Shown here piece after piece: positions 22,091 to 22,537 of a stretch of DNA of 64,000 nucleotides; the first letter of the stretch is position 1; every line of letters starts with the position of its first letter. Location: the NCBI GenBank assembly GCA_000002435.2, contig CM018789.1; one strand, 5' to 3'. Below the pieces are notes generated by a model. It was not told the DNA's origin. It saw only the letters and a program-made list of their open reading frames with translations, and made no database searches. Both the position numbers and the translations under genes were made by a program. Origin of the DNA: Giardia intestinalis (lineage: Eukaryota).

Positions 22091-22537
22091 CTACGCCTTG
22101 CCCCGGCAGAGGAACCACCAGCAAAGGAATCCGACGAGGCCCCCCACGACAATAACAGCGGCCACAGCGATGCCTGCGATGGCGCCTGTAGAAAGGCCGC
22201 TACTCTTGTTTGTGTTGGGAATCACGCACGCGTCGCCCTGGAGCGTGTAGCCATTGTCCTCATCGCACTTGCAGGCCTTCGTCGAGCCGACAACCGGGGC
22301 CTCTATTTCTCCTCCGTTTGCGTCGCAGGCGGCCTTGCAGCTCTTCTTGTTGACCGCGATGAACTTCGCGGGATCCGTACACGTGAGGCAGATCTTGTTC
22401 CCGCTGTTCGAGTCGCACGTGGCGCACCCAGCGGTTCCTAGATCGCCGCACGCGTTGTCAGATCTGCTCTTCTCTGCTGGCCGTATCGCCTCTGCCAGCT
22501 GCAGAACGAGGCTTGTGAAGATAAGCTTAGCAAACAT
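22091..22537 (-). CDS. mini variant-specific surface protein (VSP)-like cysteine-rich type I membrane protein
   Basis: Signal peptide [17 protein letters not shown] (start re-anchored to ATG 22537). Cys-rich ectodomain with CXXC motifs (CATC, CLTC). C-terminal [31 protein letters not shown] is the conserved Giardia VSP membrane anchor plus invariant CRGKA tail. Confidence 0.75.

Follow-up and report, generated by a model that had tools for sequence, protein, structure and literature searches.

Genomic context

The window, a stretch of 64,000 nucleotides of Giardia intestinalis DNA analysed as a whole, harbors a small VSP gene on its minus strand at 22091..22537. The coding sequence is read from 22537 to 22091 and measures 447 nt, comprising 148 codons and a TAG stop; it is recognized as an open reading frame, by its Pfam match and by an identical sequence in Table S1 of a published VSP catalogue (Rodriguez-Walker et al., 2022, bioRxiv 10.1101/2022.03.07.483299). 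An earlier note, made from the letters alone, had placed a 148-aa ORF at exactly these positions, giving no strand. It had also named Giardia as the organism, correctly so, since an annotated VSP of Giardia lamblia WB matches the protein with 100% identity. The gene places the window in Giardia intestinalis WB (assemblage AI), chromosome 1.

Downstream of the VSP gene lies a 379-aa MavL-like ADP-ribosylhydrolase gene (20574-21713, minus strand; Pfam PF16062, E 2e-97). The block around it (20000-22500) has a GC content of 65-67%, compared with 44-49% in the flanking genes, and this high GC gives rise to long spurious ORFs on the other strand. Upstream, two genes on the plus strand encode the Pus10 tRNA pseudouridine synthase (22953-24683) and a SNF2-family helicase (25687-28479). 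The region that contains these two genes is collinear in other isolates, with nucleotide identities of 87% in P15, 77-78% in Logan contigs and 98.5% in an assemblage A isolate. In three other isolates the contigs stop right at the VSP.

A second trace of the family lies in the DNA that separates the small VSP from Pus10. About 60 nt at 22762..22821, on the plus strand, are recognizable as a VSP 3′-end relic, which ends in ...WFRWQFVFCGKA* ahead of a perfectly matching extended poly(A) signal, ACTTAGATAGTGAAT (22807..22821). The relic lies 225-285 nt upstream of the small VSP, on the opposite strand. A gapped DNA alignment of the relic with the VSP 3′ end is not significant (score 20, against a shuffle mean of 16.9 and a shuffle maximum of 28); the relic is called on the basis of the exact 15-nt extended poly(A) signal, the adjacent ...FCGKA-stop and conservation in two other isolates. 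The relic is retained by L007, a Logan contig of assemblage A, and by DH (L001), in which it is followed by a VSP body lacking its 5′ end; P15 (L004) does not have it.

Elsewhere in the window there is a perfect (100%) inverted repeat of 1669 nt (46673-48341 and 51148-52816), with 2806 nt between its arms, each of which carries one 173-aa ankyrin-repeat ORF. The geometry resembles that of inverted identical vsp gene pairs, but the ankyrin ORFs are not VSPs.

Protein architecture and family membership

The protein is built from a signal peptide, one module of about 75 aa with ten cysteines and an anchor. By hydropathy, residues 1-15 and 114-145 are its only hydrophobic segments. The mature ectodomain (residues 18-107, 22217..22486, minus strand) consists of the ten-Cys module in a fixed register, with CATC, CLTC, CKAAC, CKC and a final C104. 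Cysteines total 12 (8.1%): ten in the ectodomain (C30, 38, 41, 50, 53, 67, 71, 89, 91, 104) and C139 and C144 in the TM domain and tail. The figure of about 10 Cys that the earlier note gave for the protein is thus too low, and the two CXXC motifs that it reported are CATC and CLTC; there are in addition one CXC and one CXXXC. The anchor (residues 108-148, 22094..22216, minus strand) comprises a stalk, the TM domain from A119 to L143 (22109..22183) and the cytoplasmic pentapeptide CRGKA (22094..22108).

The CRGKA pentapeptide is a defining feature of VSPs (bioRxiv 10.1101/2022.03.07.483299). Searched with a degenerate DNA pattern for CRGKA-stop, the window gives a single match over its 64 kb, and 100 shuffles give none. 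The Pfam profile PF03302 (VSP) matches with 69.8 bits (E 2.6e-19), well beyond its gathering cut-off of 31.4 bits; the alignment pairs residues 27-148 with positions 283-397 of the 397 in the profile, i.e., with its membrane-proximal end. VSPs are expected to contain at least 4% Cys with multiple CXXC, and the 8.1% of the small VSP lies at the low end of the published range (7.06-15.46%). CRGKA, the TM domain and stalk, the signal peptide, the Cys and CXXC content, the initiator element (Inr), the extended poly(A) signal and the PF03302 match, read together from the sequence, firmly indicate membership of the VSP gene family. The HCMP/CRMP proteins of Giardia are likewise Cys-rich type I membrane proteins with CXXC. 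However, CRMPs lack CRGKA and Inr, lack the extended poly(A) signal (with 4 exceptions) and frequently contain CXC, whereas the 148-aa protein has all three features and only one CXC, which rules out an HCMP/CRMP identity.

Comparison of 29 small VSPs defines the module more closely. Cys30, 38, 41, 50, 53, 67, 89, 91, and 104 are invariant or nearly so, in the register C..L..AGC.TC......C..C.............C...C................C.C....GY......C, and the module is followed directly by an 11-residue stalk, the TM domain and CRGKA. Among the last 33 positions, about 22 never vary in this set, and 99 different C-terminal peptide sequences have been counted among 254 genes (Adam et al., 2010, PMC2996952). 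The TM domain and tail, which had been described as invariant, are thus present and highly conserved, but not invariant.

The two parts of the protein evolve differently. In pairwise Nei-Gojobori estimates, which cover few sites and use partners that are partly paralogues, the dN/dS of the anchor is 0.00-0.03 at dS 0.4-1.2. Under the same limits of few sites and partly paralogous partners, the ectodomain gives 0.4-0.5 in comparisons with WB and about 1 when the two closest relatives are compared with each other, and every Cys is kept. By these estimates the anchor is under strong purifying selection, and a constrained anchor combined with a fast-evolving exposed part is the usual VSP pattern rather than that of neutral decay.

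An AlphaFold2 model built with the 29 aligned small VSPs reaches a moderate mean pLDDT of 68. Within it, the ectodomain (residues 30-108) has pLDDT 73-86 and short beta-hairpins, and the TM helix spans residues 123-145. A Foldseek search against the PDB returned nothing significant, the best hits (E 0.2) being R-spondin furin-like repeats, TNFR cysteine-rich domains and HER2. The model may be taken as a generic hint of a small disulfide-rich beta-hairpin module, with no closer fold assignment.

Translation start and expression signals

Two in-frame ATGs compete for the start of the gene. The ATG at 22537..22535 is embedded in an initiator/Kozak-like element, CAatgTT (22533..22539, minus strand; context CCGACGCAATGTTTG), which agrees with the PyAatgTT consensus of VSPs (Adam et al., 2010, PMC2996952; bioRxiv 10.1101/2022.03.07.483299). 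This element is present in 135 of 136 VSPs (bioRxiv 10.1101/2022.03.07.483299). A longer ORF of 185 aa, the old RefSeq model, begins in the same frame at ATG 22648, where the consensus seen at 22537 (gCAatgTTt) is missing.

The signal peptide occupies codons 1-17 of the shorter frame (22487..22537, minus strand). It was judged here by hydropathy and the -3/-1 rule, program predictions being those of the preprint, in which at least two predictors call a signal peptide at the second Met of GL50803_0050390 (bioRxiv 10.1101/2022.03.07.483299). A good signal peptide had been proposed before, and indeed residues 1-15 are hydrophobic, an A-x-A pattern (A-E-A) stands at -3 to -1, and the same 17 aa are given in Table S1. 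The signal peptide is common to paralogues and to the P15 counterpart.

At the other end of the gene, the extended poly(A) signal of VSPs has an exact copy, ACTTAGGTAGTAAAC, 12 nt past the stop at 22064..22078 (minus strand); it contains the Giardia AGTAAA. The published rule asks for ACTYAGRTAGTRAAY at most 28 nt from the stop, and the signal is found at all 136 VSPs and nearly nowhere else; Table S6 of the same work enters it for GL50803_0050390 (bioRxiv 10.1101/2022.03.07.483299).

The in-frame upstream extension of 37 codons (22538..22648, minus strand) has no Inr, no signal peptide and no VSP similarity, and the PF03302 match begins only at residue 65 of the 185-aa model, leaving residues 1-64 uncovered. 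When the DNA is aligned with that of the two closest relatives, the region upstream of 22537 shows indels of 1, 2, and 13 nt, compared with exactly 3 nt for each of the three indels within the 148-aa frame, so that the longer frame is not conserved in DH and in the Logan copy (L002). The 185-aa model was rejected on these grounds; the Inr, the signal-peptide-like segment, the Pfam extent and the frame-keeping indels set the start at 22537. The 148-aa start of the earlier note is thus preferable to the RefSeq one, and it has also been adopted for GL50803_0050390 by Rodriguez-Walker et al. (2022). The extension is most likely untranslated leader or promoter DNA.

Gene models and catalogue identity

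The gene is GL50803_0050390, to which it is identical in both nucleotide and protein sequence as deposited. Table S1 lists this gene on NC_051856.1 (chromosome 1) with 447 nt, 148 aa, the initiator “caatgtt” and the remark “Y in 2nd M”, and with 12 Cys (8.11%), a signal peptide, a TM domain and a CRGKA tail (bioRxiv 10.1101/2022.03.07.483299). It had been labeled pVSP in GL2.1, a label explained by the first Met, which has no signal peptide; the preprint places the signal peptide and Inr at the second in-frame Met, and counts the gene among the 136 complete VSPs (bioRxiv 10.1101/2022.03.07.483299). Older models (RefSeq, Adam et al.) differ in using the upstream ATG, with 185 aa and “no Inr”, and otherwise describe the same gene as GL50803_0050390.

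The similarity search that the earlier note had suggested gave a 100% match to an annotated VSP: the 185-aa model is identical to XP_001706456.1, “VSP [Giardia lamblia ATCC 50803]”. Its computed properties (18.86 kDa, 13 Cys, 7.03% Cys, 2 CXXC) equal those of VSP-97 / GL50803_10562, a complete gene of clade III on chromosome 1 in Additional file 1 of Adam et al. (2010, PMC2996952). The small VSP is probably this gene, an identification based on length, mass, Cys, CXXC and chromosome rather than on sequence. No literature was found under the identifiers XP_001706456, GL50803_0010562 or VSP97, and the one mention of VSP-97 / GL50803_10562 is as a miR2 target predicted from an alignment only (PMC5192507).

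The smallness of the protein, which had been presented as unusual for the family, is real, but its rarity was overstated. Sizes of vsp genes range from 222 to 6777 bp, and at least 23 complete VSPs of up to 200 aa are tabulated (Adam et al., 2010, PMC2996952). The 136 complete VSPs of WB span 127-2293 aa, with a median of 645 (bioRxiv 10.1101/2022.03.07.483299), and a homology search finds many intact relatives of 127-171 aa in assemblages A, B, and E. A VSP of 148 aa is small, yet neither the smallest nor novel. The gene, its family, its small size and the corrected 148-aa start are already known from the literature and databases; the Table S1 row and the preprint text together already contain the reading offered in the earlier note, start included.

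Relatives and the Pus10 locus

Within WB, other small VSPs of Adam clade III, such as GL50803_008595 (127 aa, P0013), GL50803_00102178 (128 aa, P0020) and P0017 (142 aa), share the architecture and Cys register of the 148-aa VSP and are 43-54% identical to it. They differ in their signal peptide (MLVGFLLV... or MLLVLL... rather than MFAKLIF...), have a slightly shorter module and lie at other loci. The paralogue GL50803_0050332 (419 aa), once annotated as HCMP and now as VSP, has the identical 17-aa signal peptide and is 59% identical over its first 111 residues, which include the whole module. In contrast to the small VSP, its module is followed by a long canonical VSP body and not directly by the anchor.

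The closest protein matches in other isolates occur at non-syntenic loci, in DH (L001, 65% identity) and in a Logan assembly (L002, 71%). What these two loci have in common with WB is a unit of about 780 bp, about 80% identical in nucleotide sequence and made up of the relic, the upstream region, the gene and the poly(A) signal. The copies in DH, Logan (L002) and GS_B (L003) were considered as positional orthologues and discarded, being away from the Pus10 locus and sharing no more than about 780 bp; they are paralogues or moved copies. The DH relative (L001:5451-6089, plus strand, AHGT01000007.1) has CRGEA at its end in place of CRGKA, and the ORF called for it, of 212 aa, is extended upstream. 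A nearby ORF annotated as a 563-aa VSP (L001:3831-5522, minus strand, AHGT01000007.1) reads through the relic and has no signal peptide. Both DH gene models look mis-started.

The positional counterpart was located via orthologues of the neighboring Pus10. In P15 (assemblage E), a VSP of 514 aa (L004:154-1698, minus strand, ACVC01000030.1) sits beside Pus10 in the matching position and orientation. It shares its signal peptide with the WB gene, is 60% identical to it over the module, and is homologous at its 3′ end and over about 90 nt downstream. In P15, unlike in WB, the module is present twice in tandem (residues ~29-111 and ~117-199); a canonical body comes next, about 270 aa long and containing a GYY...CxxC...CxxC stretch, and then the anchor. 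In the assemblage A isolate whose flank is 98.5% identical (L007), the region upstream is syntenic and the contig ends at the VSP start.

The module heads longer VSPs and is duplicated in tandem in P15, as would be expected if modules are gained and lost here by recombination. The comparison points to such gain or loss at the Pus10-adjacent locus since assemblages A and E diverged. A more far-reaching proposal would treat this position as a standing site of module gain and loss (one module and the anchor in WB, two modules and a body in P15, a relic in assemblage A) and the WB gene as a natural “minimal VSP”; this is speculative and, on balance, improbable.

Short gene or remnant

The earlier note had left three possibilities for a VSP of this size: a naturally tiny VSP, a truncated remnant of a longer one, and a recombination substrate for VSP diversification. 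Truncation at the 5′ end should leave VSP-like sequence upstream in frame. A tblastn search of the whole window with 122 VSP sequences (P0001-P0120, the P15 514-aa VSP and the DH 563-aa VSP) detected only this gene. HSPs running upstream of 22537 are spurious extensions of low similarity that lack the Cys pattern. With no VSP-like coding sequence upstream in frame, and a frame kept by indels only from ATG 22537 on, 5′ truncation is ruled out and the remnant option of the note falls.

A broader version of this idea, a decaying pseudogene left behind when a longer VSP lost its body, and which has ceased to give rise to protein, draws on several observations. The gene bears the pVSP label in GL2.1, and it has neither GGCY nor motif 1, two features discussed below. 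The 514-aa counterpart in P15 has a canonical body with a motif-1-like stretch, so that WB may have undergone an internal deletion, and the VSP 3′-end relic 225 nt upstream on the other strand reflects past VSP turnover at the locus. In addition, the identifier GL50803_0050390 is absent from Table S13 of the preprint (bioRxiv 10.1101/2022.03.07.483299), which lists translation evidence, and no unique-peptide evidence was found there; as a pVSP without a protein accession, the gene may be outside the search database.

Decay is nevertheless very unlikely. pVSPs of types I and II, as defined by Rodriguez-Walker et al., have no ORF, contain internal stops, or miss the signal peptide, TM domain or tail. 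The small VSP, on the contrary, is an uninterrupted ORF with signal peptide, TM domain and CRGKA tail, and its Inr and extended poly(A) signal are in place. Indels relative to its relatives preserve the frame, and the low dN/dS of the anchor given above is incompatible with neutral decay. The single-module architecture is intact across isolates and assemblages (P0002, P0003, P0005, P0007-9, P0013, P0017, P0020), and the gene has been reclassified as a complete VSP (bioRxiv 10.1101/2022.03.07.483299).

With all signals intact, the frame kept and the anchor under purifying selection, a naturally tiny VSP is the best of the three options, and we consider it highly probable that chromosome 1 of Giardia intestinalis WB here carries a VSP gene that is intact and naturally short. 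A role as recombination partner is compatible with this and thus possible.

On this reading, translation begins at the initiator-embedded ATG 22537, and the product would be a type I membrane protein. The expected order is a signal peptide of 17 aa, a mature ectodomain some 90 aa long, an NKSSGLSTG stalk, a 25-aa TM helix rich in GxxxG, and CRGKA. By analogy with other VSP CXXC modules, the ten-Cys module is probably disulfide-bonded and/or metal-binding. The protein represents the minimal architecture of the family, in which one N-terminal module is joined straight to the anchor.

Surface display

As a member of the family, the small VSP would be expected to take part in the mutually exclusive VSP expression system, which is controlled post-transcriptionally/epigenetically, and, when selected, to appear on the trophozoite surface. 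Its role would then be that of a displayed variant antigen, as known from other VSPs. Two sequence features have been associated with display. GGCY is reported to be important for surface localization and occurs in 117 of 136 VSPs, being missing from the other 19 (bioRxiv 10.1101/2022.03.07.483299). It is found nowhere in the 148 aa; given that GGCY is not universal in VSPs, this does not exclude membership. According to Li, Saraiya and Wang (2013, PMC3656445), surface localization needs both motif 2, the last 38 aa, and motif 1, GYY...CXXC-x12-15-CXXC...(G/T)(S/P)VxCY, about 17 residues upstream of motif 2. Proteins with motif 2 only remained intracellular (Li, Saraiya and Wang, 2013, PMC3656445).

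Motif 2 is present in the small VSP. The 45 residues at the position of motif 1 (~49-93) contain neither GYY nor VxCY, nor any CXXC pair with the right spacing, which would place the protein outside the “bona fide” surface VSPs (73 genes) as delimited by Li, Saraiya and Wang (2013). With neither GGCY nor motif 1, surface display of the small VSP is putative.

These absences are what would be expected of a VSP-family protein that is made but is not a coat antigen, being intracellular or ER-retained, or serving mainly as a sequence donor in recombination. Motif 2 alone gave no route to the surface in the experiments cited (PMC3656445). The recurrence of the ~780-bp unit at ~80% identity at non-syntenic DH and Logan loci agrees with a donor role, and the presence of the module in longer VSPs, in tandem in P15, is what module shuffling would give. 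However, 19 of the 136 accepted VSPs do without GGCY too, and this gene is among the 136 of the later definition, which disputes the criteria of Li et al. (73 VSPs). The full set of VSP-specific expression signals (Inr and extended poly(A)) is also present. On this evidence a function away from the coat appears possible, if on the whole doubtful.

Implications

For gene discovery the value of this locus is small, as the gene and its start are already catalogued. It does illustrate an annotation problem, in that this single gene has been given three models, as a VSP of 185 aa, as a pseudogene (pVSP) and as a VSP of 148 aa. The gene also bears on the dispute between two definitions of the family, one of 73 genes that asks for motif 1 and motif 2, and one of 136 genes that asks for a signal peptide, a TM domain and CRGKA. 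As an intact, naturally short gene, the small VSP is a compact natural construct for the minimal needs of surface targeting in VSPs. Display on the surface without GGCY and motif 1, if true, would overturn the claim that motif 1 is required and would define the smallest functional unit of the coat.
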